The notes: generated from the sequence alone by a model not told the origin. Positions 41,043-61,411 are shown, counted from the stretch's first letter. The stretch is DNA of 64,000 nucleotides from a virus (IMGVR_UViG_3300037419_002054:35122-99121), one strand, 5' to 3'. Program-made: numbers and translations.

Positions 41043-41083
41043 GCTAAGGTTGAGAGAGCGCACCCCTAACGGAGACTACCCCG

Positions 41084-47551: not shown

Positions 47552-47597
47552 TGGAGTCTCCGGGGGGTGCGGCGTGCGCTCTCTGAACCTTGGGAGA

Positions 47598-47626
47598 ATA
47601 ATACACGAATCCCCTCCCGGCGTCAA
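47598..47626 (-). promoter_or_regulatory. cassette promoter (minus) embedded in a hairpin; terminator-promoter module 47575-47650
   Basis: Minus strand TTGACG-17-TATTAT. Arms GAATCCCCTCC/GGAGGGGATTC (47607-47646) flank the -35. Leader CTCCCAAGGTTCAGAGAGCGCAC. Confidence 0.65.
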
Positions 47627-47668
47627 CAACTTCCGAGAGGGGATTCTTTCACTGCCCGTCGGGCGGAC

Positions 47669-47995
47669 CTACTCGCCGCTCATCCGGTGGTCGATGCACC
47701 AGCGGACGGTCCGGTGCTGGGTGGGAACACGACGGGTGCACCCCCGGACGAGCTGCCCGGGCTGCAGCCGCTGGGATACCTCGGCCCGCGGCACCCAGTA
47801 GAAGACGCGACGGCGGCCCAGGGACTGCAGCTTCACTTCCGCCTGCTGGATCTCCACCACCCGGTAGTGCGCGGTCCGGGAGGGAGGCCGCTGGTGTACC
47901 TGCGCTCCCGAGGAGGTGGCGAAGGAGAGGGCGGCGAGGAGCGCGGTCACCATCGCGGCGGCACGGCTCGGGTACTTCCGGGCGAAGTTCAGCAT
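47669..47995 (-). CDS. small secreted protein (108 aa, N-terminal signal peptide)
   Basis: MVTALLAALSFATSSGAQV is signal-like. AGGAGAT SD. Confidence 0.45.
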   Translation of the reverse strand: MLNFARKYPSRAAAMVTALLAALSFATSSGAQVHQRPPSRTAHYRVVEIQQAEVKLQSLGRRRVFYWVPRAEVSQRLQPGQLVRGCTRRVPTQHRTVRWCIDHRMSGE

Positions 47996-48023
47996 CTTCC
48001 GATCTCCTGTAGATGAAGGGGGC

Positions 48024-48052
48024 GGGTGCGGCCGGCTTCTCCAGCCGCACCC
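48024..48052 (-). terminator. terminator-like hairpin
   Basis: GGGTGCGGC-11nt-GCCGCACCC. Confidence 0.4.
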
Positions 48053-48061
48053 CGGGTGGTC

Positions 48062-48418
48062 CTACTCCTCTTCGGACTGACCGCGGACCCACCCACAGTG
48101 CGGGCAGGGCTCGCCGTGCTCCACGTACTCGTAGGGGTAGGAACCGCCGCACTTCTCGCAGATGGTTTCGTCCTCCTCCGGCACGTCCGAGGTCTCCACC
48201 AGCCCCAGGCTCGCCGCCACCTCGAACCCGCGCGCCGTGGGCTTGTACTGCTCCTCCGTCTCCTCGGCGAGGCCCAGCTCGATCAGCCGGCGGAACGTCC
48301 TCGGGGCTCCGAGCGCGTGCGCCACCGTCTTCTCCACTCCGCCCTCGAACCCGCAGAGGTCGCGAAGGACCCGCTCCTGCGTCTCGGTGAGCTCCGGGAT
48401 ACCGCTCGTCTCGGTCAT
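48062..48418 (-). CDS. zinc-ribbon protein (118 aa)
   Basis: CEKCGGSYPYEYVEHGEPCPHCGW. Downstream of the cassette promoter at 48467-48495. Confidence 0.5.
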   Translation of the reverse strand: MTETSGIPELTETQERVLRDLCGFEGGVEKTVAHALGAPRTFRRLIELGLAEETEEQYKPTARGFEVAASLGLVETSDVPEEDETICEKCGGSYPYEYVEHGEPCPHCGWVRGQSEEE

Positions 48419-48466
48419 CCTGCCTCCTCATGAAAGGGGTTGGACTGCGTCCGACCTACGTGGAGA

Positions 48467-48495
48467 ATAATACACGAATCCCCTCCCGGAGTCAA
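48467..48495 (-). promoter_or_regulatory. cassette promoter (minus) with hairpin over -35
   Basis: TTGACT-17-TATTAT; arms 48477-48487 / 48505-48513. Confidence 0.6.
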
Positions 48496-48526
48496 CAACT
48501 TCCGAGAGGGGATTTCATCGATGCGG

Positions 48527-48712
48527 TCACTTCGTAGGTCCGCCCTTGTACTTGCCGAGGTTCTCCTGATGTTGACGTCCCCGCTCGTGCGATCCGCGGG
48601 CAAGGGCGTTGGTGCTGATCCGAACGTAGCAGATCCGGCACGTTTGGTGCCGCGGGCCGTTTGGGGTGTAGAGCGGCCGAGGGAGCCCCGGCCGGCGGTC
48701 TTCCTCGCCCAT
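48527..48712 (-). CDS. small basic protein (61 aa)
   Basis: AGGAGG SD; CRICYVRIS. Confidence 0.4.
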   Translation of the reverse strand: MGEEDRRPGLPRPLYTPNGPRHQTCRICYVRISTNALARGSHERGRQHQENLGKYKGGPTK

Positions 48713-48715
48713 AGG

Positions 48716-48907
48716 TCAGTCCTCCTGCAGCCACCACTCCGGGACGAGCGCCATGGTGAGCCCGAAGGCCACCTCCTTCTTCCCGTCCTTGTCCCCGATC
48801 AGCATCCCGCGGGAGCCGTTCGGGATGCGGTCGATGACGACGTCGGCGTCGTCGAGGACCGTGAGCTGGCCCCAGGGGCTGTTGAGCTTCACGTAGCGGG
48901 CCGCCAT
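48716..48907 (-). CDS. hypothetical protein (63 aa)
   Basis: ORF. Confidence 0.4.
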   Translation of the reverse strand: MAARYVKLNSPWGQLTVLDDADVVIDRIPNGSRGMLIGDKDGKKEVAFGLTMALVPEWWLQED

Positions 48908-48908
48908 C

Positions 48909-49049
48909 TCAGCCTCCGGTGAGAACGTACGTGAGGAACCAGACGCCCATCACGAGCCCCGCGAAGCGGTAGCTGCCGGTCTTGCCGAGCACGGCCACCG
49001 CGGCGTAGATCGCGAAGAGCAGGGGGAGCCAGAAGCGGAGCGCGTTCAT
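48909..49049 (-). CDS. small membrane protein (46 aa)
   Basis: MNALRFWLPLLFAIYAAVAVLGKTGSYRFAGLVMGVWFLTYVLTGG. GGAGGT SD. Confidence 0.35.
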   Translation of the reverse strand: MNALRFWLPLLFAIYAAVAVLGKTGSYRFAGLVMGVWFLTYVLTGG

Positions 49050-49561
49050 TCTACCTCCGGAGCCGAGGGTAAGGACTGTCGCAGCCCGGCGTTGAGCCGG
49101 AGCAGCACGTAGTGGAAGAGCGTAACCGAGAACAGGGCGAAGAGGTTCGCCTCGTCCTCCTGCCGCTGGAACGCCCGCACCTCGTCCGGCGCAAGGCGCG
49201 CGGGATTGAGCGCGTATGCGGAGTTCGGGGTGTGCGGGAGCAGGTGATGCCCGAGCTCGTGGAGGATCGCGTGGGCCTGCTCTACGAGGTCCAGGTCCGT
49301 GTCCAGCCAGATCACGGACAGCGTGGCCGTCTTGATGAGGCAGGCCGGTAGACTCGGCGCGGGCCGCCGCCGGATCTCCAGCCCGTGGGCCGAGGCGGCC
49401 AGCTCCGCCCAAAGGAGGAGGGCGGAGTCCACGGAGACGCAGCGGGCCATGTCCGGGATGCCGTTCCAGACCACCACGCTGGCGGTGTCAACGGCACGGA
49501 GGAGGATCGCGCCCGTGCGATCCTCCTCTACCGGGAGGCTACTCCTCGTCATCGTCTTCAA
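49046..49561 (-). CDS. ImmA/IrrE-family (COG2856) HExxH zinc metallopeptidase domain protein (171 aa)
   Basis: Motif AHAILHELGHHLLPH is the diagnostic HExxH block of the ImmA/IrrE family. Confidence 0.55.
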   Translation of the reverse strand: MKTMTRSSLPVEEDRTGAILLRAVDTASVVVWNGIPDMARCVSVDSALLLWAELAASAHGLEIRRRPAPSLPACLIKTATLSVIWLDTDLDLVEQAHAILHELGHHLLPHTPNSAYALNPARLAPDEVRAFQRQEDEANLFALFSVTLFHYVLLRLNAGLRQSLPSAPEVE

Positions 49562-49682
49562 CGGAGTCGATGTTGAGCACTCCGTCCCGGACGTACGCCT
49601 CAGCCTCCGGGTAGCCGTCCACGATCACCTCCATCTCGTCCGGGAGGCCGGCGAGGGCCTCCCGCAGCTGACGCACGTTCAT
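49539..49682 (-). CDS. small acidic protein (47 aa)
   Basis: Not in the ORF track. Verified translation MNVRQLREALAGLPDEMEVIVDGYPEAEAYVRDGVLNIDSVEDDDEE. Confidence 0.35.
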   Translation of the reverse strand: MNVRQLREALAGLPDEMEVIVDGYPEAEAYVRDGVLNIDSVEDDDEE

Positions 49683-49694
49683 AGTTCGCCCCTT

Positions 49695-49844
49695 TCAGGC
49701 GTAGTAGGTGTCGCGTGGATCCAGCCCGGGCTCCGGCCGGTATTCGGGGATGGCGACGACCTCGCCGCGAAGGATCTCGGGGCACTGCTCGCAGGAGCCG
49801 GCCGCGTCCAGCCGCAGGGAGCAGAGGGGGCAATGCGTCGGCAT
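49695..49844 (-). CDS. zinc-ribbon microprotein (49 aa)
   Basis: MPTHCPLCSLRLDAAGSCEQCPE... GGGAGG SD. Confidence 0.4.
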   Translation of the reverse strand: MPTHCPLCSLRLDAAGSCEQCPEILRGEVVAIPEYRPEPGLDPRDTYYA

Positions 49845-49848
49845 CTCT

Positions 49849-50088
49849 TTACGCCTCCCTCTCGACGCCCAGCGTCTCCAGGGTCGGGAGCCCGCAGTCC
49901 GGGTGCTCCGCGAGGTACTGCTCATACGCGTCCGTGGGGCAGTAGCCCCAGCCGAGGTTGCCGGCCGTGGCGTTCCACGCCTGCAGGTTCAACGCATTCA
50001 CCTCGTCCTGGGTGGTGAGCGCGCGTGCCTCGTAGAGGTTGCCGCCGTCTCCGTCCGAGAGGACGTACAGCTTGGGCTTCTGTTCCAT
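49849..50088 (-). CDS. hypothetical protein (79 aa)
   Basis: ATG 50086-50088, downstream of the cassette promoter at 50135-50163. Confidence 0.45.
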   Translation of the reverse strand: MEQKPKLYVLSDGDGGNLYEARALTTQDEVNALNLQAWNATAGNLGWGYCPTDAYEQYLAEHPDCGLPTLETLGVEREA

Positions 50089-50134
50089 CGGGATCTCCCG
50101 CGGTAGGGGGTAAAGGGCCACTCAACCTGTGAGG

Positions 50135-50163
50135 ATAATACACGGAGCCTCCTCCGGAGTCAA
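50135..50163 (-). promoter_or_regulatory. cassette promoter (minus) with covarying hairpin
   Basis: TTGACT-17-TATTAT. Arms GAGCCTCCTCCGG / CCGGAGGAGGC (50145-50181) have different sequence but the same structure. Confidence 0.6.
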
Positions 50164-50195
50164 CATCTTCCGGAGGAGGCCGGGCCTTATGGATC

Positions 50196-50687
50196 TCAGC
50201 TGACGTAGGGCTTCAGCTCCGGGTGCTGCCGGAGGCAGTCCGGGCCAATCGGAAGACCGCCGACGTATCCGGCGTCATTCACGTCCGCGCTTCCCGGAAC
50301 CGCGGCGTAGGCGCCACCGTCCACCACCTCCAGGTAGTGGCGGGGGTTCTTCACCTCCCGGCCGCAGACCACGCAGGGGTCCTTCTCGCAGGGCTCCCGG
50401 TAGGGCTTTGTCGACTCCGGGATGCGCACGCGGGGCTCGGGGATGAGGAGAGCCGCCGGGACGGCGCAGGTGAACTTCTTGAACCGGACCAGCGCCAGCT
50501 GCACGCCGTCCCCGCAGATGGCGCGGAGCCCGGCCGCGCGCTCCTGCTCAGACGGCGTGGAGTCCCGGAGGCCGAGAACGACGCCGGCCGTTCCCACCAC
50601 GGGCGCGTCCTGGATCTCGCGCGCCTGCAGGTCCGCGTACGCCGCGGGGGTCATGAAGATCTTGGCGCCCTTGGTAATCTCCGTCAT
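50196..50687 (-). CDS. hypothetical protein (163 aa)
   Basis: Downstream of the cassette promoter at 50732-50760. Confidence 0.5.
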   Translation of the reverse strand: MTEITKGAKIFMTPAAYADLQAREIQDAPVVGTAGVVLGLRDSTPSEQERAAGLRAICGDGVQLALVRFKKFTCAVPAALLIPEPRVRIPESTKPYREPCEKDPCVVCGREVKNPRHYLEVVDGGAYAAVPGSADVNDAGYVGGLPIGPDCLRQHPELKPYVS

Positions 50688-50731
50688 CTCTCCGCTCTCC
50701 GTTTGGGGGTGGACCGCTCAACCATGGGAGA

Positions 50732-50760
50732 ATAATACACGAATCCTCTCCGATGGTCAA
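50732..50760 (-). promoter_or_regulatory. cassette promoter (minus) with covarying hairpin
   Basis: TTGACC-17-TATTAT. Arms GAATCCTCTCCG / CGGAGAGGATTTC (50741-50782). Confidence 0.6.
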
Positions 50761-50803
50761 CACTTTCTGCGGAGAGGATTTCGTTGACGGGTGACGGAGC
50801 AGG

Positions 50804-51370
50804 TCAGGCCGGGTAGACTAGCACCACGCCGTCGCTCCAGTTCTCGAGGTGGAAGCCTTCCGGGGTGGCCCACGGGTGAACGAGCCAGGGCGTGCCGTCG
50901 TCCCAGCAGTAGTCGATCTGCGTGCCGAAGGGGAGGAAGGTGAGGCCGCCTACATCGATGCCGATACCCCACAGCGCGCGGCGGCCGGCGCGCTCGTTCA
51001 CCTCCGGGGTCAGCACCTTCACGTTCTCCGGACCCGCGCCCACGGTCCCGAGGATCACCCGCGCGGCCTCGGCCAGCTTCTCCGCCACGCGCTCCGCGGT
51101 CTCCGGCTCCTTCGCCATCTGCCGGGCGTGCTCCCGGAGGGCGGAGATGATCCAGTCCCGGGAGACGTCGGTGCCGTCCGGGTTCTCGATGAGGGGGACC
51201 TTCCGGAGGGCTTCCGGGTTAGCGGTCCCGTAGTGCCACGCGATCCAGCCCTTCGGGAGCCCGTGCTTGGTGAGCCCGGCGAACTCCTCGTCGGTCATCC
51301 CGCCGTTGGCGAAGCGGCCGACCGTCCCGTTGATCCGGCGGCCCAGGTGGTGCGCGATGAGTCCCTGCAT
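50804..51370 (-). CDS. hypothetical protein (188 aa)
   Basis: ORF. Confidence 0.5.
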   Translation of the reverse strand: MQGLIAHHLGRRINGTVGRFANGGMTDEEFAGLTKHGLPKGWIAWHYGTANPEALRKVPLIENPDGTDVSRDWIISALREHARQMAKEPETAERVAEKLAEAARVILGTVGAGPENVKVLTPEVNERAGRRALWGIGIDVGGLTFLPFGTQIDYCWDDGTPWLVHPWATPEGFHLENWSDGVVLVYPA

Positions 51371-51401
51371 CGTTCGGTCTCCAGTTCGGGGGTTTTAGAT
51401 C

Positions 51402-51653: not shown

Positions 51654-51694
51654 CGGGGTCTCTCCGTTTGGGTGCGCTCTCTCAACCTTGGGAG

Positions 51695-51723
51695 AATAAT
51701 ACACGAATCCCCTCCCGGCGTCA
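51695..51723 (-). promoter_or_regulatory. cassette promoter (minus) with hairpin
   Basis: TTGACG-17-TATTAT. Arms 51704-51714 / 51734-51743. Conserved leader CTCCCAAGGTTGAGAGAGCGCACCC. Confidence 0.65.
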
Positions 51724-51862
51724 ACACTTTCCGAGAGGGGATTTCACTGACCGCTATCGCTTCCGTTCCGGCGGCCCCCACGTGAACCCGATGAACCACC
51801 GCCAGAGGACGAAGCCGACCCCCGGCCGGCCCTCCACGTCGTGTATCCCGAACCGGGGCATT

Positions 51863-52114: not shown

Positions 52115-52118
52115 CGGT

Positions 52119-52298: not shown

Positions 52299-52348
52299 GA
52301 CGGGGGCTCCCGTTGGGGTAGTGGGTGCGCTCTCTCAACCTGTGGAGA

Positions 52349-52378
52349 AAGATACACGCACCCACCTCCCGTGGTCAA
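52349..52378 (-). promoter_or_regulatory. cassette promoter (minus), degenerate copy
   Basis: TTGACC-18-TATCTT; leader CTCCACAGGTTGAGAGAGCGCACCC. Only a weak 7-bp inverted repeat. Confidence 0.45.
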
Positions 52379-52620
52379 CAGTTTCCGTTCTCTCCCTCCT
52401 CCGGGAGGATGGGTTCGCGGCACCGCTTGCAGGTGGAGTCGTACTGCTCCGGGTAGGTCTCCAGTAGGTAGTCCAGCTCACCGGAGTCCAGCGGGTACGC
52501 CTGGGTACGCTCGGTGCGATCCTTCTTCGCCTCCCCCTCCCGAATGCTCTCGCCGCAGGAGGGGCAGAGGATCATGCTCGCGTCCCCGATCCCGTAGATG
52601 TAGGCGACGGTCTTGCTCAC
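52375..52620 (-). CDS. zinc-ribbon protein (about 81 aa)
   Basis: GTG start in a GTGA overlap. CPSCGES...CKRCREP. Confidence 0.4.
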   Translation of the reverse strand: MSKTVAYIYGIGDASMILCPSCGESIREGEAKKDRTERTQAYPLDSGELDYLLETYPEQYDSTCKRCREPILPEEGENGNC

Positions 52621-53036: not shown

Positions 53037-53082
53037 GGTGCACCTCCTGCGGGTAAGGGGTAGGACTGCTCAACCTGTGAGG

Positions 53083-53111
53083 ATAATACACGGCACCCAA
53101 CCCCGCGTCAA
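53083..53111 (-). promoter_or_regulatory. cassette promoter (minus) preceded by a separate terminator hairpin
   Basis: TTGACG-17-TATTAT. Upstream (minus) GGGGAGGGGCC...GGCTCCTCCCC hairpin at 53117-53143, then UUUCUG. Confidence 0.6.
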
Positions 53112-53171
53112 CAGAAAGGGGAGGAGCCTCTCGGCCCCTCCCCCTCCCTTCGGTTCAGCCTCGCTCCGCGC

Positions 53172-53864
53172 TCAGCGGTGCGTGGTATCCCTCGAGGCCG
53201 CCACGGTGCCGTCGGCCGGCGCGCCGAAGTCGATGGCCTCCTCCTTCCCCGTCTCGAAGGAGTGCAGCGTTCGGTCGTCGAGCACCTGCGTACGGATCAT
53301 CTGCAGCGCGGCCTCGCCGGTGACGAACCCGTCGCCCTTGCGCACCCGGAGGACGTTGCTGGGGAAGTACATCTTCACGAAGAACGGGCGGATCACGCCG
53401 TCGTTCGTCCACGCGTCGTACACGGCCACCCGCTGCGCCAGCTCGTCCTGCTTGTTCTTGAACTCGGTACGGCCGGCGCTGATCGCGTCGAAGAGCCGGT
53501 CCTGGGCCTTGGCGAGCTGCGACAGGTCCGGGTACGCCTCGCGCATCGCGGAGATCAGCTGGCCGTTGCTCTGGAAGCCGCCGGTGCCGTACCGCCCCTG
53601 CACCGCGTCGCGCAACACGGTGTCGAGCTGGGCGCTCTGGACCCGGACGATGCCGGCCTGCTCCTTCACCGTCTTCACGTAGGTCGAGAGCGCGTTCTGG
53701 TTGGCCGTGTACTGCGCCGCCAGCTGCGTCTCCTGCCGGATTCCCTCCCGCTTGACGCTTCCGACGTAGCCGAAGGCGCCCACCAGGAGGACGACGACCG
53801 CCGCGAGGGCGATCCCGCCGATCGCGAGGCAGCCGAGGCCCGCGGCCTTGCCCGTGTTGCTCAT
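53172..53864 (-). CDS. LemA-family-like membrane protein (about 230 aa)
   Basis: ATG 53862-53864 (MSNTGKAAGLGCLAIGGIALAAVVVLLVGAF): single N-terminal TM followed by a Gln/Ala-rich soluble domain, typical of LemA. Confidence 0.45.
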   Translation of the reverse strand: MSNTGKAAGLGCLAIGGIALAAVVVLLVGAFGYVGSVKREGIRQETQLAAQYTANQNALSTYVKTVKEQAGIVRVQSAQLDTVLRDAVQGRYGTGGFQSNGQLISAMREAYPDLSQLAKAQDRLFDAISAGRTEFKNKQDELAQRVAVYDAWTNDGVIRPFFVKMYFPSNVLRVRKGDGFVTGEAALQMIRTQVLDDRTLHSFETGKEEAIDFGAPADGTVAASRDTTHR

Positions 53865-53895
53865 TCTGTTGATCCCCGAGGGATGGAGGGTTTGC

Positions 53896-55323
53896 CTACC
53901 GCAGCCCGCGGTAGGGACGGAACGCCGGGACGGAGGAGTACCGCCGCCGGTTGGGCTCACCGAAGAACGCCGCGCCGCCCCAGGCGACGAGCGAGCCCGC
54001 GAGAGCAATGAGGAAGATCCAGACCTTCGCCTTCGTGGACGGCTGGATCTCTCCCTTCAGGTACAGGTAGCCCCCGCCGTGGGAGTCTCCGTTCATACTG
54101 ACCCGGGCGAACCGCGTGGCGGGGTTCTCGAGGCCGAAGACGACGGACTCGATCACGCCGTTCCCGTGGAGGGAGGTCACGGCCTGCCCGCGGATCTGTC
54201 CGCGTACGGAACCCACCACGGCCTCCGGGGTGAGCGGAGTACCCGCAAGCCGGCGGTTGAGCACCGTCGTCATCAACTCGTTGCCGGAGGGCATCCCGGT
54301 CACGGCTCGGCCCCACGCGGCGGTCTTCCCGTCCAGCGTACCCACGGCCACGATGATGGTGTTCTTCGCCGCCGTGTTCCGGTCGAACGCGGTCACGTCC
54401 TGCCAGCGGGCCTTCAGTGCCATGATGTAGGCGTCCGCGTTCGGGACCTTCTTCGCGTCCACGAGGACGAGGAGGAGATCCCCGCGGAGCTCGTTGCCGA
54501 GTGCTGCGTTCAGCTTGCCCACCGCGTCCTGCCACGCCCGCGCGTTGGGCGGCACGAACCCGGCGAACACCACCTTGTCCGAGAGGTAGTGCGAGTAGAT
54601 GTTGCTCGGGACCGCGGGCAGCAGCTGCCGGGAGAGGAACGAGTTCACGTCCGAACTGCGCTCCTGTAGGATCGTGCCGTCCGAGGCGAGGATGTAGTTC
54701 TTGTAAGTCGCTCGCTTCACGACGGGTCCGGGGTTCCCGGAGAGGACCCGCTCGCGCGCCTGGGACCAGAACGCGGGGTAGCCCGTACCGGCGTTCGAGA
54801 TCACGCTGGAGGGGAGATCCTCGCCGCGCTCCGGCTCCCACCTCTCGCTGTGCGGGTTGGCCGGGAAGCGGCCGGAGTCGATCAGGTACTCGCCCAGGGT
54901 CGTCTGCACGTAGTACGCCCACTCGGTCCGGACGTACGGGCAGTGATGGTACTCGGTCGTGTAGTACGTCGTGCACGAGCGGGTCTTCCCGCTCCCCGAG
55001 CAGGAGGTGTGCGAAACGAGGTACGGATCGCAGTTGTAGCAGTGCTGACAGCTGCCGTCCCGGGTGCAGTTCGTCGGCACCGCCCGGACGCCGGACTCCC
55101 ACCCGTTGTGGAACTCGTTGAACGTCAGCTTGGCGTCCACCGCCGTCTTCCAGCCCAGGCCCACGCTCAACGGGACGATGAGGAGGGAGATGGCAAGGCC
55201 GTAGCCGAGCAGCTCCGCGCGGGAGATCTGCAGGCCGTGCTCGGGGTGCGTGTCGAGGTACCACTTGAGCGCGGCGCCGGCCCCGAAGGCGGCGACGAGG
55301 GACCAGAATCCGATGACCCACAT
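53896..55323 (-). CDS. large membrane protein (about 475 aa) with N- and C-terminal TM helices and a Cys-rich ectodomain segment; possible TPM-like partner of LemA
   Basis: ATG 55321-55323 (MWVIGFWSLVAAFGAGAAL). Cys cluster NCTRDGSCQHCYNCDPY...CSGSGKTRSCTTYYTTEYHHCPY. C-terminal TM VWIFLIALAGSLVAWGGAAFFG. Confidence 0.45.
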   Translation of the reverse strand: MWVIGFWSLVAAFGAGAALKWYLDTHPEHGLQISRAELLGYGLAISLLIVPLSVGLGWKTAVDAKLTFNEFHNGWESGVRAVPTNCTRDGSCQHCYNCDPYLVSHTSCSGSGKTRSCTTYYTTEYHHCPYVRTEWAYYVQTTLGEYLIDSGRFPANPHSERWEPERGEDLPSSVISNAGTGYPAFWSQARERVLSGNPGPVVKRATYKNYILASDGTILQERSSDVNSFLSRQLLPAVPSNIYSHYLSDKVVFAGFVPPNARAWQDAVGKLNAALGNELRGDLLLVLVDAKKVPNADAYIMALKARWQDVTAFDRNTAAKNTIIVAVGTLDGKTAAWGRAVTGMPSGNELMTTVLNRRLAGTPLTPEAVVGSVRGQIRGQAVTSLHGNGVIESVVFGLENPATRFARVSMNGDSHGGGYLYLKGEIQPSTKAKVWIFLIALAGSLVAWGGAAFFGEPNRRRYSSVPAFRPYRGLR

Positions 55324-55384
55324 AAGGCTGTGTCCGGGGGAAAGGGATGGAGGGAACCGGCGGCTAAGTGCTCCGCCGGTCCCG

Positions 55385-55795
55385 TCACTGTTCGTCCTTC
55401 GCGGCCGCGATCCGCTCAACGGTGAGGAGGAGGTCAAGGAGGGCCTGCAGCTCCGGTTGCCACGCCCAGTCCTCCAGCGCCGGCTCCATCGCCTCCAGGA
55501 GCTCGTTTAGCGCCTCGCGGACCTTCTCCTGCATGATCTCTCCGGCCTGCTCCAGCGCGTAGCGGATGAGCGCGGCGCACGCCTCGTCCCGCATCCTCTC
55601 GCAGAACTCGAAGGCGTCGCCGCCCGGCGCGAAGCCCGAGGGCCGGTAGGTGAGGACCGCCCACTGCTTCTCCACCACACGGTCCGCCATCCGCCGCGCC
55701 CGGCCGCTGAGCGTGGAGGCGTGCCGGGTGAGGAACGGCCGGTACTCCCGCGGGAGCCGGGCGCGGAGTACCGGGGAGCAGAACGGGTCCAGCAT
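55385..55795 (-). CDS. hypothetical protein (136 aa)
   Basis: ATG 55793-55795 (MLDPFCSPVL). Confidence 0.4.
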   Translation of the reverse strand: MLDPFCSPVLRARLPREYRPFLTRHASTLSGRARRMADRVVEKQWAVLTYRPSGFAPGGDAFEFCERMRDEACAALIRYALEQAGEIMQEKVREALNELLEAMEPALEDWAWQPELQALLDLLLTVERIAAAKDEQ

Positions 55796-55796
55796 C

Positions 55797-55961: not shown

Positions 55962-56005
55962 CTTGTCCTCCCGGGTGCGGGGGTGCGCTCTCTCAACCGT
56001 GGAGA

Positions 56006-56034
56006 ATAGTACACGAATCCCCCGGACTGGTCAA
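56006..56034 (-). promoter_or_regulatory. cassette promoter (minus) with covarying hairpin
   Basis: TTGACC-17-TACTAT. Arms GAATCCCCCGG / CGGGGGATTC (56016-56055). Leader CTCCACGGTTGAGAGAGCGCACCC. Confidence 0.6.
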
Positions 56035-56075
56035 CACTTTCAGCTCGGGGGATTCGTCGTAGGGGTCGGTAGCGT

Positions 56076-56900
56076 CTACACCCTGATGGTGGGCGGTCCT
56101 CCCGCGGTGAGCCGCTCGATCCGGTTGGCGACCTCCTTCAGGTGCAGGGACAGCTCGGTGATCCGTCCGCCGCGGATGAAGGTGAACTTCCGCTCCCGGC
56201 AGAACGCCTCCACCTTGCTCACCGTCTCGCCACCCAGCCCCACCAGCGCCTCCAGCAGCTCGACGTTCGCCCGTACCTCGGACTCGCCGACGGTGGGCGG
56301 GAAGGTCTGCCCGTGTAGCTTCTCCATCGCCTCCACCTTCCGCTTGGAGACGTTGCCGCCCTCGCCGGCCTCGGCCAGCTTGGAGAGCCCGACGATCGAG
56401 ACGTCGACCTCGTAGCCCAGTTCCTGGGCGAGCGCGCGCTTGGCTTCCTTGGAGCCGCCGCGCTTCTTCCACACGTCGGTGAACTGCTGGATGAACGTAC
56501 GCAGCTGCTCGTTGCTGATTCCGGCGCGGGTACGCACGGAGGCGGTCGCGGTCACGGTCGGTTCCTCCTCGAGGGGAAGGGTCTGCTGGGGGACGGCGGG
56601 CTCGCCCACGATCAGGCGGCCGCAGTGGTAGTGCTCCCCGCGCTCGCGGATGCTCAGGAGGAGCTGGTAGAGCGACGGGTTCATCCGGCCACCGTTGTAC
56701 CCGGTCAGCCAGTTGCCGATGGCGCTGACGGAGACGCCCATACGCTTCGCGAGGCGCTCCTTGGCGACCGCTGGGCTGCGCTCGCCGCCGAACCGCTTGA
56801 GGACCACGATCAGCGTGCGAACGCGCTCCTCGAACGCAGCGCGGCCCTCCGGCGAGAGCGTCTGCAGGTCCTTGCTGCTTCCGTACTTGATCTCGGGCAT
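56076..56900 (-). CDS. helix-turn-helix DNA-binding protein (274 aa, two HTH-like segments); candidate transcriptional regulator
   Basis: LAKRMGVSVSAIGNWLTG and LAQELGYEVDVSIVGLSK resemble XRE-type HTH segments. Confidence 0.45.
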   Translation of the reverse strand: MPEIKYGSSKDLQTLSPEGRAAFEERVRTLIVVLKRFGGERSPAVAKERLAKRMGVSVSAIGNWLTGYNGGRMNPSLYQLLLSIRERGEHYHCGRLIVGEPAVPQQTLPLEEEPTVTATASVRTRAGISNEQLRTFIQQFTDVWKKRGGSKEAKRALAQELGYEVDVSIVGLSKLAEAGEGGNVSKRKVEAMEKLHGQTFPPTVGESEVRANVELLEALVGLGGETVSKVEAFCRERKFTFIRGGRITELSLHLKEVANRIERLTAGGPPTIRV

Positions 56901-56901
56901 C

Positions 56902-57462
56902 TCAGCCCCTCGTCTTGTGGATGCGGTAGCCCGCGGTGATATCGCTCGCCCGCAGGAAGCCGGCGGGCTCCGGGGCGTAGGGGTTGCCGTAGATGACCCG
57001 CTCCTCCTCCGAACGGAGCCAGGACTCGAGGCCGCTGGTGCCGTACATGATGGAGAGCCAGAGCGGGTGCTGCTTGGCGGCGCGGCGCTGGGGCGCGCTC
57101 ACCAGCTCCCAGCTCTCCAGTCCGTAGATCCTCTGCGCCGCCCGGTCCAGCCGGCGGTTGTTCTCCCGGTGGAGCATCAGCTCGGCGTAGGCGAACGGGT
57201 CCGTGCGGTATCGCAGCGCTTCCTCCACGGTGATCTCCCGTCCGATCGCGCGCATCCGGGCCATCTGCTCCTCGGCCTTGATGGCCGCCTCGAGCGTCGC
57301 CTGCAGCGCCCTCCCGAAGGAGGTCAGCGAGACCCCGAGGGCCTTCATCGCGTTCACCGCAGCCAGCGTCTTGCCGCACTGGTGCGCCGCCGAGATCACC
57401 GTCTCCCGGGAGGCGAATCGCCCGGTGGTGACGCCCACGAGGTTGAGTCCGTCTCTGTTCAT
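56902..57462 (-). CDS. hypothetical protein (186 aa)
   Basis: ORF. Confidence 0.45.
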   Translation of the reverse strand: MNRDGLNLVGVTTGRFASRETVISAAHQCGKTLAAVNAMKALGVSLTSFGRALQATLEAAIKAEEQMARMRAIGREITVEEALRYRTDPFAYAELMLHRENNRRLDRAAQRIYGLESWELVSAPQRRAAKQHPLWLSIMYGTSGLESWLRSEEERVIYGNPYAPEPAGFLRASDITAGYRIHKTRG

Positions 57463-57987
57463 TTACGCGTTGCGTGAGGGAACGAAGCGGGTCCCCTCGT
57501 TGGCGATGATGTTCAGCATGATCGCGCGCAGCCGGTCCCGCGCGTCCGGGTAGCGACGGAAGAAGCGCCGTGCGCGACTCTCCGGCCCCCGGTCGTTGTA
57601 GCCCTCGAAGGCGCGCTCGATCTTCTCGAGCTCGGCGGCCGGGAAGAAGCCCTGGGTGACGTCCTCGAAGTTGTAGAGCGCGTCCCCGTACGTGACGATG
57701 CCGAACCTCTCCGCGAGGTGCCCGCGCGCCAGCGTGAACGCGGCGACGAAGATGGCTCCCCAGGCGCACGCCTGCACCCGGCGCGTCCGCAGCAGCGAGG
57801 ACAGGTTGACGTAGGTCTGGCGGTCCCCGGGGAATTCGAGGTACACCCCCGTGCTCGCGTCGACCAGCCCGCGGTCGAGCTGGCGGACGACTTCCTGCGC
57901 GATCGCGACGCGGCGGAGATCTTCGTCGAGGGAGAGGAACTCGCTCTCGGCGAGCGGGAACAGCGGGGAGGACGAGCGGGTCTTCAT
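57463..57987 (-). CDS. hypothetical protein (174 aa)
   Basis: ORF. Confidence 0.45.
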   Translation of the reverse strand: MKTRSSSPLFPLAESEFLSLDEDLRRVAIAQEVVRQLDRGLVDASTGVYLEFPGDRQTYVNLSSLLRTRRVQACAWGAIFVAAFTLARGHLAERFGIVTYGDALYNFEDVTQGFFPAAELEKIERAFEGYNDRGPESRARRFFRRYPDARDRLRAIMLNIIANEGTRFVPSRNA

Positions 57988-58070
57988 CGGTGGCCTCCTG
58001 CGAGGGGGTCGGTCGGTGCTGAACCTCTGGACCCCCTCACCGTCGGCCGAGTCGTTCTCGGTGTTCGGCG

Positions 58071-58454
58071 TCAGATGCTGATGCCGAAGACCTGGAGCAC
58101 GCGGCGGAGCCAGCCCGGGGCCAGCGCCTTGTGCATGCCGGTCACGTTCACCACCTCGGGGTGGGCCGCCCGCAGCATCTCGTACGCCTCCAGCGCGCTC
58201 CCCGCGAGGCCGCGGTAGAACTGGAAGCGGGCGACGAAGCCCTGCCGCCGGGCCTCGGCCTCCTTCACCGCGCTGACGCGCTGCTCGATGGCGGCGCGGA
58301 TCGGGGCCGTGTCCTCGGGGCTGAAGCCGAAGCCCTCGGCGGTCTCGATCAGCGGCAGGCCCTTCTTCGCGGCCTGGAAGTTGATGTGCGCCTGCACCTC
58401 GTCCGCGGTCAGGTCCAGCACCTGCGCGTCCGTCAGCTTCTCGAACTGGATCAA
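58071..58454 (-). CDS. hypothetical protein (127 aa, TTG start)
   Basis: ORF with an AAGGAG SD. Confidence 0.45.
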   Translation of the reverse strand: MIQFEKLTDAQVLDLTADEVQAHINFQAAKKGLPLIETAEGFGFSPEDTAPIRAAIEQRVSAVKEAEARRQGFVARFQFYRGLAGSALEAYEMLRAAHPEVVNVTGMHKALAPGWLRRVLQVFGISI

Positions 58455-58489
58455 CTGCGCTCCTTGGGAAGAGGGAGAAAGAGAAAGGG

Positions 58490-58513
58490 GAGCGACCTCT
58501 GCTGGTCGCTCCC
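58490..58513 (-). terminator. intrinsic terminator after gene 58546..58830
   Basis: GGAGCGACC-TCTGCT-GGTCGCTCC followed by a pyrimidine/U-rich tract on the minus transcript. Confidence 0.5.
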
Positions 58514-58524
58514 CTGAAGTGTCA

Positions 58525-58538
58525 CCCCCCCCCCCCCC
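58525..58538. repeat. C14/G14 homopolymer tract
   Basis: 14 consecutive C on the plus strand (poly-G in the minus transcript 3'UTR), between the stop at 58546 and the terminator hairpin. Confidence 0.9.
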
Positions 58539-58545
58539 TCCGTGT

Positions 58546-58830
58546 TCATGCCTCCGGGGCGAGGGAGGTGGGCGCCGACTTGACCCGCGTCCCCATCCGC
58601 ACCCGCACGATGTTCACCCCGTGCCCCTCCTTCGCGCGGTACGCCTTCCAGTCCGGGCGGTCGTTGATCCACCCGCGGGCGCCGGCGATGGTCCCCCAGG
58701 TCTTCGCGTCCTCCACATAGGTGGACAGCTCCCCCTCCATGTGCATCCCGACCTGACGGGAGACGTAGCGCGGGGCGTTCGGGACCTGCGGGAAGACGAC
58801 CTGGATGGCGTAGCGGAAGGTCTCGGTCAT
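58546..58830 (-). CDS. hypothetical protein (94 aa)
   Basis: Downstream of the cassette promoter at 58875-58903. Its 3'UTR contains a G14 tract and a terminator. Confidence 0.5.
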   Translation of the reverse strand: MTETFRYAIQVVFPQVPNAPRYVSRQVGMHMEGELSTYVEDAKTWGTIAGARGWINDRPDWKAYRAKEGHGVNIVRVRMGTRVKSAPTSLAPEA

Positions 58831-58874
58831 CGTTGGATTCTCCGTTGGGGGTGCGCTCTCTCAACCTGGGGAGA

Positions 58875-58903
58875 ATAATACACGCATCCCCTCCATTGGT
58901 CAA
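58875..58903 (-). promoter_or_regulatory. cassette promoter (minus) with covarying hairpin
   Basis: TTGACC-17-TATTAT. Perfect 11-bp arms GCATCCCCTCC / GGAGGGGATGC (58884-58926). Confidence 0.65.
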
Positions 58904-58947
58904 CACTTTCTGACGGAGGGGATGCGCTATCCGACCGGGCAGGGAGC

Positions 58948-59265
58948 TCAGCGCTTCAGGCGGACCATGCCGAGCTTCTCCGCGGTGCAGTACGCGTCCT
59001 TATCGGGGACCGAATCCCAGCCTCCCTCCGGCGGGAAGTAGGTGATGGATCCCATCTCGTTGACCTGGGTTCCCTCCGGCACGCGCATGAAGAAGACCTT
59101 GTCGCCTTCCCCGGCGCCCTCCCGCCGGCACGCCTTGAGCGCGTCGACCCCGGTCTTCCCGCGGCCCCACACGTAGGGACCCACCGCGAGGATGATCTTC
59201 CCCTCGCCGCCCTCCAGCGCGCGGGCGGCCTGCAGCGTGATGCTCTTGAAGTCCTTGGCTTCCAT
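58948..59265 (-). CDS. hypothetical protein (105 aa)
   Basis: ATG 59263-59265 (MEAKDFKSITL), GGGAG SD. Follows the terminator at 59296-59316. Confidence 0.45.
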   Translation of the reverse strand: MEAKDFKSITLQAARALEGGEGKIILAVGPYVWGRGKTGVDALKACRREGAGEGDKVFFMRVPEGTQVNEMGSITYFPPEGGWDSVPDKDAYCTAEKLGMVRLKR

Positions 59266-59295
59266 CGGGTCGTCTCCCTTGGGAAAGGAAGTGAA

Positions 59296-59316
59296 GGCCC
59301 CCGCCGGAGCGGGGGC
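59296..59316. terminator. hairpin terminator
   Basis: GGCCCCCGC-CGGA-GCGGGGGCC. Confidence 0.45.
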
Positions 59317-59324
59317 CAGGGAAC

Positions 59325-59834
59325 TCAGGCCGCGAACATCTTCTTGTAGGCCGCGGCCGAGATGAACTTGCGGTCCACGTAGATCCGCGCGGGGAACTGG
59401 TGGAAGAGCGTCCCCTGCCCGGAGACGTTCAGGATCATCTGCTGCTCGATCTCCACGTTGCGGCCGGCGCGGGTGCCCGTGATCCGGAAGCTCACCCCGT
59501 CCATCCGGTGCACGGTGCCGGTCTCCAGCTCGCCGATCTTCTCCTCGATCTTGCCCACCCACGCCTCCACCACCTGCTGCGCGTACTCCTCCGAGACCCG
59601 CGTGAGCTTCGCCTCGTTCAGGCTCTTGGTCTGGTCGGTGGAGGAGGCCGAGACGAGGAACTGGCTGACGGTGTTCCGCAGGGGCTTGGCGAACCGGAAG
59701 CTGTTGTAGATGCCCTTCAGCTCGGGGCCGTGCGCGGCGACCATATCGGCGAAGAGACCGCGGACGATCGCGACGTAGCGGGCGGCGATCTGCGGCTTGT
59801 ACTCGTTCATCGCGGCGGCGAGGGAGGCGTGCAT
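59325..59834 (-). CDS. hypothetical protein (169 aa)
   Basis: ATG 59832-59834, downstream of the cassette promoter at 59880-59908. Confidence 0.45.
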   Translation of the reverse strand: MHASLAAAMNEYKPQIAARYVAIVRGLFADMVAAHGPELKGIYNSFRFAKPLRNTVSQFLVSASSTDQTKSLNEAKLTRVSEEYAQQVVEAWVGKIEEKIGELETGTVHRMDGVSFRITGTRAGRNVEIEQQMILNVSGQGTLFHQFPARIYVDRKFISAAAYKKMFAA

Positions 59835-59879
59835 CTTCGGTTCTCCGTGGGCTTGGGTGTGTCCGCTCAACCTGTATCT

Positions 59880-59908
59880 AATATACAACGATCCCCCGCC
59901 GTGGTCAA
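59880..59908 (-). promoter_or_regulatory. cassette promoter (minus) with covarying hairpin
   Basis: TTGACC-17-TATATT. Arms GATCCCCCGCCG / CGACGGGGGATC (59891-59928). Confidence 0.6.
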
Positions 59909-59948
59909 CACCTTTCGACGGGGGATCTTTTTGATCGGTCCAGCGGGG

Positions 59949-61305: not shown

Positions 61306-61411
61306 TGCCAGTCGCTTCGGGGTTGCAAGAGAAGGGGTGGACCGCCCGGCCCACCCCCAAGCTGCACTAACGTACTACCCCGACTGAATCCCGATCAACG
61401 GGTAGTGGCGC

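Follow-up and report, generated by a model that had tools for sequence, protein, structure and literature searches.

Composite promoter and hairpin modules in the presumed early-gene region of an uncultured high-GC phage: probable PeSL-type elements with covarying stems

Introduction

Promoter-early stem-loops (PeSLs) were described in the T4-type myoviruses RB49/phi1, PST/T4 and nt-1/KVP40 (Arbiol et al. 2010, PMC2839356; Comeau et al. 2014, PMC4122927) as composite motifs of a sigma-70 promoter and a stem-loop terminator that flank ORFans, with both activities assayed (PMC2839356; PMC4122927). [quoted passage not shown] According to a review, in the haloarchaeal myovirus HGTV-1 (also a high-GC virus) most left-part ORFs, including small ones, are preceded by a repeated TATA-box-like motif with an inverted repeat, interpreted as PeSL-like (PMC3950731); at the level of that description, the promoter is of the archaeal TATA type and not a bacterial -35/-10. 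Lambdoid morons are likewise autonomous transcription units among other phage genes (PMC2839356), but they have no conserved flanking motif, and their promoter and terminator stand unfused at opposite ends of the gene.

Here, we analyse a 64,000-nucleotide stretch (the window) of an uncultured high-GC phage (67% GC genome), the presumed early-gene region of which is punctuated by ten copies of a promoter combined with a hairpin. Both these modules and PeSLs have near-consensus sigma-70 -35/-10 boxes with a 17-nt spacer and a sequence-variable stem-loop with G.T pairs (between or overlapping -35 or -10, or just upstream), and both are dense among small ORFan genes. The proposed logic of terminating upstream and then restarting is also common to them, and for PeSLs it has experimental backing. 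The phage is, however, unrelated to the T4-type (HK97-type capsid PF05065, 67% GC, metagenomes only), and its modules lack an AT-rich tract upstream of -35, have longer stems (11-14 bp) with large loops (10-21 nt), carry a conserved 18-nt leader and are nearly uniform in geometry (-35 in the loop in 8/10, as opposed to the five position classes of PeSLs). The analogy suggests that the ten modules are the same kind of element as PeSLs, and the architecture, which an earlier note on this DNA had taken to be undescribed in phages, thus has a precedent.

Results

Ten modules on the minus strand

All ten minus-strand copies reported in the earlier note were located and their -35 boxes mapped (first bases 59908, 58903, 56034, 53111, 52378, 51724, 50760, 50163, 48495 and 47626). 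Their consensus, GAAAGTG-TTGACN-17-TATTAT with a conserved initial transcribed leader after it, is strongly over-represented: a pattern search for TTGAC-N18-TANNNT in the 64-kb window returned 11 matches (0.22 expected), a scan of 44.5-64 kb found 12 sigma-70 promoter-like sites (1.0 +/- 1.0 expected), and the leader GGTTGAGAGAGCGCACCC was matched six times with up to three mismatches allowed (0.14 expected). The description of repeated, near-consensus sigma-70 type promoters with a conserved leader is thereby borne out. The features of each module are as follows.

59855..59927, minus strand: module 1; 5' arm GATCCCCCGTCG (59927-59916), 3' arm CGGCGGGGGATC (59901-59890), 14-nt loop with -35 TTGACC (59908-59903); -10 TATATT (59885-59880); leader GGTTGAGCGGACACACCC (59872-59855); hairpin -30.4 kcal/mol, z -4.35
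58849..58925, minus strand: module 2; arms GCATCCCCTCC (58925-58915) and GGAGGGGATGC (58894-58884), 20-nt loop with -35 at 58903; -10 TATTAT (58880-58875); leader GGTTGAGAGAGCGCACCC (58866-58849); hairpin -34 kcal/mol, z -4.78
55981..56056, minus strand: module 3; arms CGAATCCCCCG (56056-56046) and CGGGGGATTCG (56024-56014), 21-nt loop with -35 at 56034; -10 TACTAT (56011-56006); leader 55998-55981; hairpin -29.4 kcal/mol, z -5.08
53057..53143, minus strand: module 4, unfused form; canonical hairpin GGGGAGGGGCC-GAGA-GGCTCCTCCCC (53143-53118), TTTCT tail abutting -35 TTGACG (53111); -10 TATTAT (53088-53083); leader GGTTGAGCAGTCCTACCCC (53075-53057); hairpin -40.7 kcal/mol, z -3.66
52316..52385, minus strand: module 5; arms GGGAGGTGGGTGCG (52370-52357) and CGCACCCACTACCC (52329-52316) bracketing the -10/+1 region; -35 TTGACC (52378), whose TGA is the stop codon of the ORF upstream; spacer 18 nt; -10 TATCTT; leader 52340-52323; hairpin -38 kcal/mol, z -4.11
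51670..51743, minus strand: module 6; arms AATCCCCTCTCGG (51743-51731) and CCGGGAGGGGATT (51718-51706) with one U.G pair, 12-nt loop with -35 (51724); -10 51701-51696; leader 51687-51670; hairpin -27.6 kcal/mol, z -2.86
50705..50780, minus strand: module 7; arms AATCCTCTCCG (50780-50770) and CGGAGAGGATT (50752-50742), 17-nt loop with -35 at 50760; -10 50737-50732; leader GGTTGAGCGGTCCACCCCC (50723-50705); hairpin -20.1 kcal/mol, z -2.51
50106..50181, minus strand: module 8; arms GGCCTCCTCCGGA (50181-50169) and TCCGGAGGAGGCT (50158-50146) with one G.U pair, 10-nt loop with -35 (50163); -10 50140-50135; leader GGTTGAGTGGCCCTTTACCCCC (50127-50106); hairpin -30.4 kcal/mol, z -2.80
48440..48514, minus strand: module 9; arms AATCCCCTCTCGGA (48514-48501) and TCCGGGAGGGGATT (48490-48477), 10-nt loop with -35 at 48495; -10 48472-48467; leader divergent, without GGTTGAG; hairpin -29.5 kcal/mol, z -3.50
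47572..47646, minus strand: module 10; arms GAATCCCCTCTCGG (47646-47633) and CCGGGAGGGGATTC (47620-47607), 12-nt loop with -35 at 47626; -10 47603-47598; leader GGTTCAGAGAGCGCACGC (47589-47572); hairpin -32.2 kcal/mol, z -3.12

An inverted repeat of 11-14 bp (10-13 bp by the earlier count) brackets the -35 box in eight of the ten copies, with loops of 10-21 nt, folding energies of -20 to -34 kcal/mol and z scores of -2.5 to -5.1. The remaining two, previously regarded as lacking a hairpin, both have one (around -10/+1 at 52378, abutting the -35 at 53111), and a significant fold is present in 10/10 tandem modules. The hairpins start 12-23 nt downstream of the upstream stop codon.

Hairpins accompany upstream genes

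Three additional copies of the promoter and leader, on the plus strand, were found in the window outside the range given earlier (47575-59930), all in divergent intergenic regions.

21953..22019, plus strand: promoter copy adjoining the portal gene start; -35 TTGACC (21961), -10 TATATT, leader GGTTAAG...; no significant hairpin (z -0.61 and -0.30)
29827..29890, plus strand: promoter copy; -35 TTGACT (29835), -10 TATATT, leader GGTTGAGCAAGC...; no hairpin around -35 (z -1.55), and a 9-10 bp inverted repeat around -10 that is not significant (z -1.74)
41004..41065, plus strand: promoter copy; -35 TTGACC (41012), exact leader GGTTGAGAGAGCGCACCC (41048-41065); no hairpin (z +1.35 and -0.40)

A hairpin is thus found at 10/10 promoters with a co-directional upstream gene and at 0/3 divergent ones (Fisher p=0.0035).

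Stems covary

All copies are paralogues within one genome (no phage relatives were found, and the tests below rest on these paralogous copies), and those at 47626, 48495 and 51724 share 90-94% mutual identity, which brings the independent arm sets down from eight to about six. We built the covariation alignment in register, anchoring the 5' arms on the outermost pair and taking 4-6 nt out of the loop, which somewhat favours structure; in it, 90.2% of cells are paired (70.9 +/- 2.6 in shuffles; reached by 0/500), 8/14 stem pairs are changed on both sides (reached in 4/500 shuffles), and the covariation score is 0.523 vs 0.192. Sliding the partners by 1-3 columns lowers pairing to 41-63%. Among six distinct arm sets, the pairing of each 5' arm with its own 3' arm ranks first, with no tie, among 720 permutations, and exchanging arms between copies costs a mean of 18/75 pairs. 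On the sense strand the stems contain three independent G.U pairs and zero A.C pairs, and this strand folds better than the antisense in 6/8 copies. Arm sequences therefore vary among copies while complementarity is kept, as had been claimed, and the covariation argues for a selected hairpin over a fixed binding sequence.

The same data bear on whether the inverted repeats could be DNA operators, at which one or more dimeric phage regulators would cover the -35 and silence the early promoters. Five of the eight copies have the outer arm GAATCC...GGATTC, overlap with -35 is the classical operator position, and the array encodes both an ImmA-like protease and an HTH-like 274-aa protein (weak Pfam hits, E ~0.003, below curated cut-offs). 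Nevertheless, it is complementarity and not sequence that is kept: we find six different arm sequences with 8/14 positions doubly changed, a half-site distance that varies with the loop (10-21 nt), and G.U pairs on one strand only; the repeat is also missing from the three divergent promoters of equal class, and sits elsewhere in two modules (around -10, or upstream of -35). Varied arms, varied spacing and strand bias make this reading very improbable. The stoperators of cluster A mycobacteriophages and the SAS/ESAS of cluster K, which are protein-binding or translation-associated sites, resemble the modules as short, transcription-oriented intergenic repeats near gene starts of high-GC phages, but they are conserved in sequence, whereas the arms here vary and covary.

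Paralogy within one genome, with three nearly identical copies, would also suit a functionless complementarity left over from the duplication of one ancestral palindromic module. We consider this scarcely credible, given that divergent copies stay paired through double changes, that arm exchange breaks pairs, and that the hairpin was moved, not lost, in 52378 and 53111 and is missing where there is no upstream gene.

Tails and terminator quality

In read-through RNA the bracket hairpins are followed by (C)GTGTATTATTCTCC, in agreement with the earlier note. The note also proposed that the -10 hexamer serves at once as the terminator's U tract. As a general rule the proposal fails: the hairpin of module 52378 has no U-rich tail, so the mechanism cannot cover all copies, and 53111 has a canonical hairpin in the equivalent slot with its own TTTCT tail. 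Like classical intrinsic (Rho-independent) terminators, the bracket hairpins have a GC-rich stem 12-23 nt past a stop codon and then a T-rich stretch; they differ in their loops (10-21 nt vs 3-8 nt) and in a U run that is interrupted, starts 2-5 nt past the stem and doubles as the next -10. The tail rule of a simple terminator scan, which asks for five or more T within 8 nt and a start no more than 2 nt from the stem, holds for 6/8 of them, and the scan itself called none. By classical rules they are poor terminators.

Cassettes and stand-alone hairpins

The modules had been thought to separate single small genes. The cassettes between them hold 2, 5, 4, 2, 2-3, 2, 1, 7, 2 and at least 2 genes, mostly ORFans, and the only single-gene cassette is the one preceded by module 7. 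Every intergenic gap of at least 59 nt between 47 and 61.4 kb contains a strong hairpin. Hairpins outside the modules are as follows.

61325..61358, minus strand: stand-alone terminator-like hairpin GGGGGTGGGCCGGGCGGTCCACCCC followed by TTCTCTTGC, after the ribonucleotide reductase gene
59287..59317, minus strand: stand-alone terminator-like hairpin GGCCCCCGC-TCCG-GCGGGGGCC followed by TTCACTTCC, cassette 1, no promoter after it
58476..58515, minus strand: stand-alone canonical terminator AGGGGAGCGACC-AGCAGA-GGTCGCTCCCCT followed by TTCTCTTTCT, cassette 2
57992..58048, minus strand: GC-rich intergenic hairpin GAGGGGGTC...GACCCCCTC, cassette 2
55350..55386, minus strand: intergenic hairpin ACCGGCGG-N9-CCGCCGGT with a C/T-rich tail, cassette 3
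48024..48052, minus strand: intergenic hairpin GGGTGCGGCTGG-AGAAG-CCGGCCGCACCC, cassette 9

Since genes without a promoter come after stand-alone hairpins inside cassettes, some hairpins of the region must let polymerase pass or act on RNA stability. The hairpins could be RNA 3'-end stabilisers or processing sites of the RNase III/RNase E type (as are the RNase III sites of the T7 early region) and not terminators. A long read-through transcript would then be cleaved into mRNAs the size of one cassette, with protected 3' ends. Covariation and the sense-strand G.U bias suit any RNA-level role equally, the large loops and poor U tracts agree with weak termination, the promoter-less genes require read-through, and 52378 has no U tail. 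Yet 11-14 bp is a short stem for an RNase III substrate, the stand-alone hairpins at 58.50, 59.31, 61.33 and 53.14 kb have T-rich, terminator-typical tails, a promoter per cassette makes processing unneeded for separate mRNAs, and PeSL stem-loops were shown to terminate (PMC2839356). We regard this alternative as a real but rather unlikely one.

Discussion

The modules have a mosaic make-up: in 48495 the hairpin and promoter are shared with 51724 and 47626 (92-94%) but the leader is not (46-49%), while 58903 shares the leader (86%) and not the arms. The genes they flank are unrelated, and cassettes have no paralogues in common. The modules may serve as recombination points for cassette shuffling. 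It is, however, improbable that their primary role lies at the DNA level (through mini-circles, or through folded single-strand sites of the attC kind) with transcription secondary. Cruciform extrusion in duplex DNA is unlikely with non-palindromic spacers of 10-21 nt such as these, and homologous recombination would rely on the conserved promoter and leader and have no need of a covarying stem. Integron cassette arrays are similarly split by imperfect palindromes conserved in structure rather than sequence, but the arms here lack the attC core sites (RYYYAAC/GTTRRRY), the stems have no extrahelical bases, no integrase-like domain was found among the proteins scanned (a subset of ORFs), and the cassettes carry their own promoters, unlike the promoter-less ones of integrons. 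PeSLs were shown to recombine and form mini-circles (PMC2839356), and a recombination role is compatible with a composite promoter and terminator.

On balance, we think it somewhat probable that the modules are PeSL-type composite cassettes, in which a host sigma-70-type promoter is combined with an RNA hairpin acting against read-through, by termination or attenuation. Promoter activity, and termination rather than another RNA-level role for the hairpins, are what we infer from the sequence features. Each module would thus provide a strong promoter for the host primary sigma factor, driving 1-7 mostly ORFan, presumably early, genes. A GC-rich inverted repeat of 11-14 bp is superimposed on the promoter, its arms free to drift as long as they remain complementary. 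As the promoter's own transcript begins downstream of the 3' arm, the hairpin would form only in read-through RNA from the preceding cassette. There, followed by what may be the weakest RNA:DNA hybrid of a 67% GC genome (GUGUAUUAUU), it would bring about intrinsic termination or attenuation. With its 3' arm in the 17-nt spacer, which is sequence-neutral, and the -35 in its loop, the hairpin would compact the order of terminator then promoter, an order that is visible in uncompacted form at 53111. The hairpin would insulate the promoter from upstream polymerases, preventing promoter occlusion and transcription pile-up, and each cassette would thereby obtain its own start and stop.

A repeated sigma-70-like promoter with a conserved leader

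All ten minus-strand elements listed in the earlier note were recovered by reading the minus strand of 47.4-60.4 kb and by scanning the whole window, their -35 boxes starting at positions 59908, 58903, 56034, 53111, 52378, 51724, 50760, 50163, 48495 and 47626 (hereafter used to name the modules, i.e. the ~75-bp promoter and hairpin elements). The consensus reads (A/G)GAAAGTG-TTGACN-17 nt (18 in one copy)-TATTAT/TATATT-TCTCCNN(N)-GGTTGAG..., with a GGAG-type Shine-Dalgarno sequence and a start codon (ATG) 35-50 nt past the -10 box. The repetition of promoter and leader is far beyond chance: TTGAC-N18-TANNNT was found 11 times in the window (0.22 expected), a sigma-70 scan of 44.5-64 kb returned 12 promoter-like sites (1.0 +/- 1.0 expected) and the 18-nt leader had 6 matches (0.14 expected). 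This excess of sites sustains the claim that a near-consensus sigma-70 promoter is repeated here. The promoter element is present in 13 copies in the window, including three on the plus strand that the earlier note had overlooked. These three promoters head small islands of plus-strand genes, while the rest of the genome is mostly minus-strand.

Promoter and leader copies
21953-22019, plus strand: extra promoter and leader copy (-35 at 21961), divergent intergenic region
29827-29890, plus strand: extra promoter and leader copy (-35 at 29835), divergent intergenic region
41004-41065, plus strand: extra promoter and leader copy (-35 at 41012), divergent intergenic region
41048-41065, 51670-51687, 52323-52340, 55981-55998 and 58849-58866: 18-nt leader GGTTGAGAGAGCGCACCC, identical in these five copies
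47572-47589: near-copy of the same leader, 2 mismatches

As the five copies with an identical leader all differ in their hairpin arms, it is the leader, and not the arms, whose sequence is constrained. A second leader class follows the pattern GGTTGAG-N8-12-ACCCC. The leader may serve as an operator, an mRNA stability signal or a translation signal; a structured leader RNA was dropped from consideration, since none of the leader-region folds was significant (z +0.7 to -0.9).

Hairpins at tandem and divergent promoters

Eight modules contain an inverted repeat of 11-14 bp (mostly G-C pairs, perfect or with G.U pairs only) that carries GAAAGTG-TTGAC, and hence the -35 box, in a loop of 10-21 nt. 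The 3' arm of these bracket hairpins occupies the promoter spacer and ends 2-5 nt ahead of the -10 hexamer. Folded as RNA, they reach -20 to -34 kcal/mol, with z between -2.5 and -5.1 relative to dinucleotide shuffles, in agreement with the inverted repeat described earlier around the -35 box in 8 of 10 copies. The two copies that had been treated as hairpin-less have hairpins as well. Module 53111 carries a canonical one (11-bp stem, GAGA loop, TTTCT tail) that continues directly into the -35 box, and module 52378 a hairpin with 14-nt arms (-38 kcal/mol, z -4.1) that runs from the spacer to the leader, with both the -10 box and the start site inside it; at 52378 the TGA stop of the upstream ORF sits within TTGACC, so that no space is left for a hairpin further upstream. 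Every tandem promoter (i.e. one with a co-directional upstream gene; 10/10) thus has a significant hairpin (-20 to -41 kcal/mol, z -2.5 to -5.1), placed around the -35 box in eight cases, around the -10 box in one and abutting the -35 box in one.

The three plus-strand promoters, whose intergenic regions have no gene reading into them, showed no significant hairpin (z -0.3 to +1.4, leaving aside a repeat at the -10 box of 29835). That repeat has a geometry like the -10 hairpin of module 52378, and is not significant against shuffles (z -1.7). The contrast between tandem (10/10) and divergent (0/3) promoters gives a Fisher p of 0.0035, or 0.035 when the eight -35-box hairpins alone are counted.

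Further hairpin features
29843-29873, plus strand: 9-10 bp inverted repeat CCGTGGAGGA / TTCTCCACGG enclosing the -10 hexamer of promoter 29835
49486-49528, minus strand: perfect 12-bp hairpin GAGGAGGATCGC-N6-GCGATCCTCCTC, then CGTGCC-GTTGACA without a -10 hexamer, where the ImmA-like metalloprotease ORF begins

The hairpin at 49486-49528 may be a decayed module. At least 5 T in 8 nt, starting no more than 2 nt from the stem, follow six of the eight bracket hairpins, in a run that is interrupted and dictated by the -10 hexamer; the hairpin of module 52378 has no U-rich tail. A simple terminator scan misses the bracket hairpins because of their 10-21 nt loops. A search of the whole window against Rfam 15 at gathering score gave no match, and the tRNA scan found none. 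Loops of the lambda boxB/nut kind were also considered and rejected, as the loop motif GAAAG is present in hairpin-less promoters too and hence is part of the promoter; the idea that in read-through RNA the TCTCC discriminator pairs with the GGAGA Shine-Dalgarno was set aside because such pairing appeared in some folds only.

Covariation of the hairpin arms

MAFFT alignments of the raw modules failed to bring the arms into register because loop lengths differ, and the arms were therefore anchored by hand (5' arm fixed on the outermost pair, 3' arm on the -10 box, 4-6 loop bases omitted). Standard pairs filled 90.2% of cells as opposed to 70.9 +/- 2.6 in column shuffles (0/500 as high), changes on both sides were seen at 8 of 14 pairs (4/500 shuffles) and the covariation score was 0.523 versus 0.192 (0/500), shuffle counts that are not strict probabilities, given that the modules are paralogues of one genome in a hand-anchored alignment. 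Sliding the partners by 1-3 columns brought pairing down to 41-63%. For the re-assignment of arms six distinct arm sets were used, as three modules are near-duplicates. Each 5' arm finds its best partner in its own 3' arm, the 75 in-register pairs being the unique best of 720 re-assignments (mean 56.8), and a neutral duplication as the source of the complementarity is disfavoured.

On the sense strand the stems hold three independent G.U pairs and zero A.C pairs, and sense folds better than antisense in 6 of 8 copies; a reading of the inverted repeats as cruciforms is likewise disfavoured. Covariation, own-arm pairing and sense-strand bias together indicate that selection targets a hairpin formed by the transcribed sense as a single strand, not a fixed double-stranded binding site. 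The earlier proposal of a hairpin selected through compensatory change is thereby borne out, by pairing level, two-sided changes and permutations (1/720) alike. Were the repeats repressor operators or stoperators, one recognition sequence common to all sites would be expected, whereas six distinct arm sequences with compensatory changes are found, and the repeat is missing from three promoters of the same class; we regard this explanation as disfavoured.

Gene content of the blocks

The modules had been described as separating single small genes, which proved wrong: the blocks between successive modules carry 2, 5, 4, 2, 2-3, 2, 1, 7, 2 and at least 2 genes. The intergenic gaps that hold the modules measure 76-135 nt (209 nt in one case), and the hairpin starts 12-23 nt past the upstream stop codon. 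Nearly all genes of the array (the 47-61 kb region) are ORFans; set apart from these are an ImmA-like metalloprotease, a member of one PHROG family of unknown function and, immediately before the array, an RNase H-like gene. PHROG matches were obtained for just 3 of 20 scanned proteins (19 from the array plus the adjoining terS-like gene). No paralogues were found between cassettes among the cassette proteins.

A strong GC-rich hairpin is present in every intergenic gap of at least 59 nt within 47-61.4 kb, and besides the modules stand-alone hairpins lie at 61.33, 59.31, 58.50, 58.03, 55.37 and 48.04 kb. Three of these have T/C-rich, terminator-typical tails, and the terminator scan calls the one at 58515-58486. 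Some polymerase flux must pass the stand-alone hairpins, because promoter-less genes follow some of them. Just upstream of the canonical terminator at 58515-58486 is an intergenic 14-C homopolymer (58525-58538; 14 G on the coding minus strand), which could be a slippage-prone or assembly-sensitive site. The unusually long 209-nt gap (51654-51862, minus strand) holds an uncalled 35-codon ORF and two extra strong hairpins upstream of module 51724.

Midway through the early array, 53172-55323 (minus strand) encodes a cysteine-rich membrane protein (about 475 aa) and a 230-aa membrane protein. The former has 26 strong matches at 32-46% identity and two weak ones at 22-26%; the two named homologues belong to a candidate-phyla-radiation bacterium ('Spechtbacterales') and a cyanobacterium, and in the three contigs inspected the surroundings were non-phage (cellular), so the gene looks like an acquisition from a cell. 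A Terminase_2 (PF03592) small-subunit-like gene (60757-61305, minus strand) adjoins the array, approximately 36 kb from the portal and TerL-like genes (20.5-25.5 kb), rather than directly upstream of the large terminase.

Mosaic modules

Over hairpin and promoter, module 48495 shares 92-94% identity with 51724 and 47626, and over the leader only 46-49%, while 58903 has a shared leader (86%) and different arms.

Mosaic modules
47572-47646, 48440-48514, 51670-51743 and 58849-58925

The pattern suggests that recombination or gene conversion took place, its breakpoints lying close to the -10 box, and allows for within-module recombination as a further property. Integron attC-like sites are nonetheless disfavoured as an explanation of the inverted repeats: the arms, of the GAATCCCC type, lack RYYYAAC or GTTRRRY cores and extrahelical bases, and no integrase domain (IntI being the third attC feature) was present in the scanned proteins. 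MITE or REP elements were rejected, as there are no terminal repeats or target duplications and the modules contain a promoter.

The carrier phage, its relatives and host

The window (67.4% GC) is phage-like: at 0-22 kb its minus strand encodes the portal, an S78 protease, an HK97-type capsid, the tape measure and tail proteins; the capsid (PF05065) is accompanied by the S78 protease and a Mu-F-like protein. Among isolates the best matches were a Rhizobium phage, whose capsid is 45% identical, and Marinomonas/Geobacillus phages, whose portal is 35% identical. Rhizobium phage RHph_X2_25, the closest isolate by capsid, has no array and just two promoter-like sites in 35 kb.

A search for the module motif in related genomes, suggested in the earlier note, recovered no related array, by DNA motif or by protein, from the phage, viral-contig, genome and metagenome collections. 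Among 50,697 phage records, megablast of 47.4-53.4 kb gave no match; the exact leader and a degenerate promoter pattern had 0 matches each in IMG/VR; among 185,579 reference genomes the promoter pattern had 9 single matches, which lie in unrelated taxa and can be put down to chance; and a looser pattern returned 118 single generic promoters from JGI metagenomes, none with leader or hairpin. No loci were obtained in IMG/VR when seeding with the 474-aa array protein or the capsid, and homologues of the terS-like protein (up to 61% identity) came from unrelated phages, in which terS and terL have their ordinary order and no array is present. Exact-protein look-ups returned the same phage only, at 99.97-100% identity, in two other assemblies. 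The Logan SRR35145553 and JGI 3300037313 assemblies are fragmented, with contig ends inside near-identical modules, and one of these contigs corresponds exactly to window 51713-47599; short-read assemblies are broken at the modules because these are near-identical repeats.

Gene adjoining the array
61412-63787, minus strand: class II (B12-dependent) ribonucleotide reductase

The homologues of this reductase are bacterial (60-66% identity, almost full length), and the best taxon-named ones are all Gemmatimonadota (Longimicrobiales, Gemmatimonadetes; 61-63%, near full length, with one 71% partial match), which is a weak hint, and the only one, that the host may belong to this phylum.

Comparison with known promoter-terminator elements

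The architecture had been thought undescribed in phages. Promoter-early stem-loops (PeSLs), published in 2010 for the T4-type phages RB49 and phi1 (Arbiol et al. 2010, PMC2839356), show otherwise: they are repeated intergenic cassettes that combine a consensus sigma-70 early promoter with a stem-loop of variable sequence containing G-T pairs, and they border ORFans in hyperplastic regions. One PeSL stem-loop was as effective as the rrnB T1 terminator in lowering reporter expression, and the strength of the promoters led most clones to pick up mutations (PMC2839356). Comeau et al. 2014 (PMC4122927), who call them 'composite conserved promoter-terminator motifs', added examples from the T4/PST and KVP40/nt-1 pairs. 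A comparable motif, with a TATA-like box and an inverted repeat ahead of most ORFs, is reported for the haloarchaeal virus HGTV-1 (PMC3950731).

Like PeSLs, the array modules pair sigma-70-like -35 and -10 boxes across a ~17-nt spacer, recur intergenically (13 copies, ten of them with stem-loops that overlap or abut the promoter boxes) and span the stop-to-start gaps; their ORFan surroundings appear comparable. Unlike PeSLs, they have GAAAGTG and a GC-rich 5' arm in place of an AT-rich tract upstream of the -35 box, and their carrier, with its HK97-type capsid, is not a T4-type myovirus. As for the mini-circle and cassette-indel trait of PeSLs, the mosaic modules are suggestive; three independent assemblies are 99.97-100% identical and differ only in breaking at the repeats. 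The array is an independent element of the PeSL kind, with putative promoter and terminator roles, and the resemblance is one of kind and not of descent. Compared with a classical intrinsic terminator, the stems are likewise GC-rich (11-14 bp, at least 5 bp being usual), whereas the loops of the eight bracket hairpins are longer (10-21 versus 3-8 nt). Of the U-rich tract expected right after the stem, six of the eight have an interrupted form.

Putative mechanism

The best-supported reading is that of a composite element, in which a host primary-sigma promoter would be fused to an intrinsic terminator or attenuator of upstream transcription. Because the promoter's own transcript starts downstream of the 3' arm, the hairpin can form only in RNA from the preceding block. 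In such read-through RNA it would be followed by GUGUAUUAUU, predicted to give the weakest RNA:DNA hybrid available in this GC-rich genome, while the 3' arm would be accommodated in the sequence-neutral promoter spacer. The unfused module (53111) has a canonical terminator in the hairpin slot, and hairpins are absent exactly where nothing reads in. We consider it somewhat better than an even bet that the hairpins terminate upstream transcription, and go no higher because of the long loops, the interrupted and offset U run, the tail-less module 52378 and the read-through at stand-alone hairpins. The main rival is that the hairpins act at the RNA level by 3'-end protection or processing, without termination. 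Of the earlier interpretation, the promoter and the selected RNA hairpin stand and the terminator is plausible; single-gene insulation and novelty do not stand.

It is further conceivable, albeit improbable, that the fusion goes beyond compaction and that upstream polymerase is freed at the next -10/+1 and handed over for re-initiation, the modules doubling as portable recombination joints for ORFan swapping. If so, DNA-retained polymerase would be recycled after termination and supply an equal, position-independent dose to each cassette, and the array, with its uniform -35-in-loop geometry, would be the first of the PeSL type in a bacterial phage outside the T4 group, possibly a Gemmatimonadota-infecting one.

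The principle itself was published in 2010 (PMC2839356), and the array adds a clean natural example with built-in compensatory variants. Its six naturally covarying arm sets form a ready-made compensatory-mutation series, usable for the effect on termination and initiation of a hairpin whose loop holds the -35 box and whose tail is the -10 box, and such compact bifunctional parts could provide insulation in synthetic constructs meant for high-GC hosts. For annotation, the motif flags early transcription units of an uncharacterised phage, and its repeats account for assembly breakpoints in this phage. Should the modules function as proposed, cassettes that combine promoter and terminator would not be peculiar to T4-type phages, and would represent a convergent way, in an unrelated high-GC lineage, of running many small accessory genes as insulated units.
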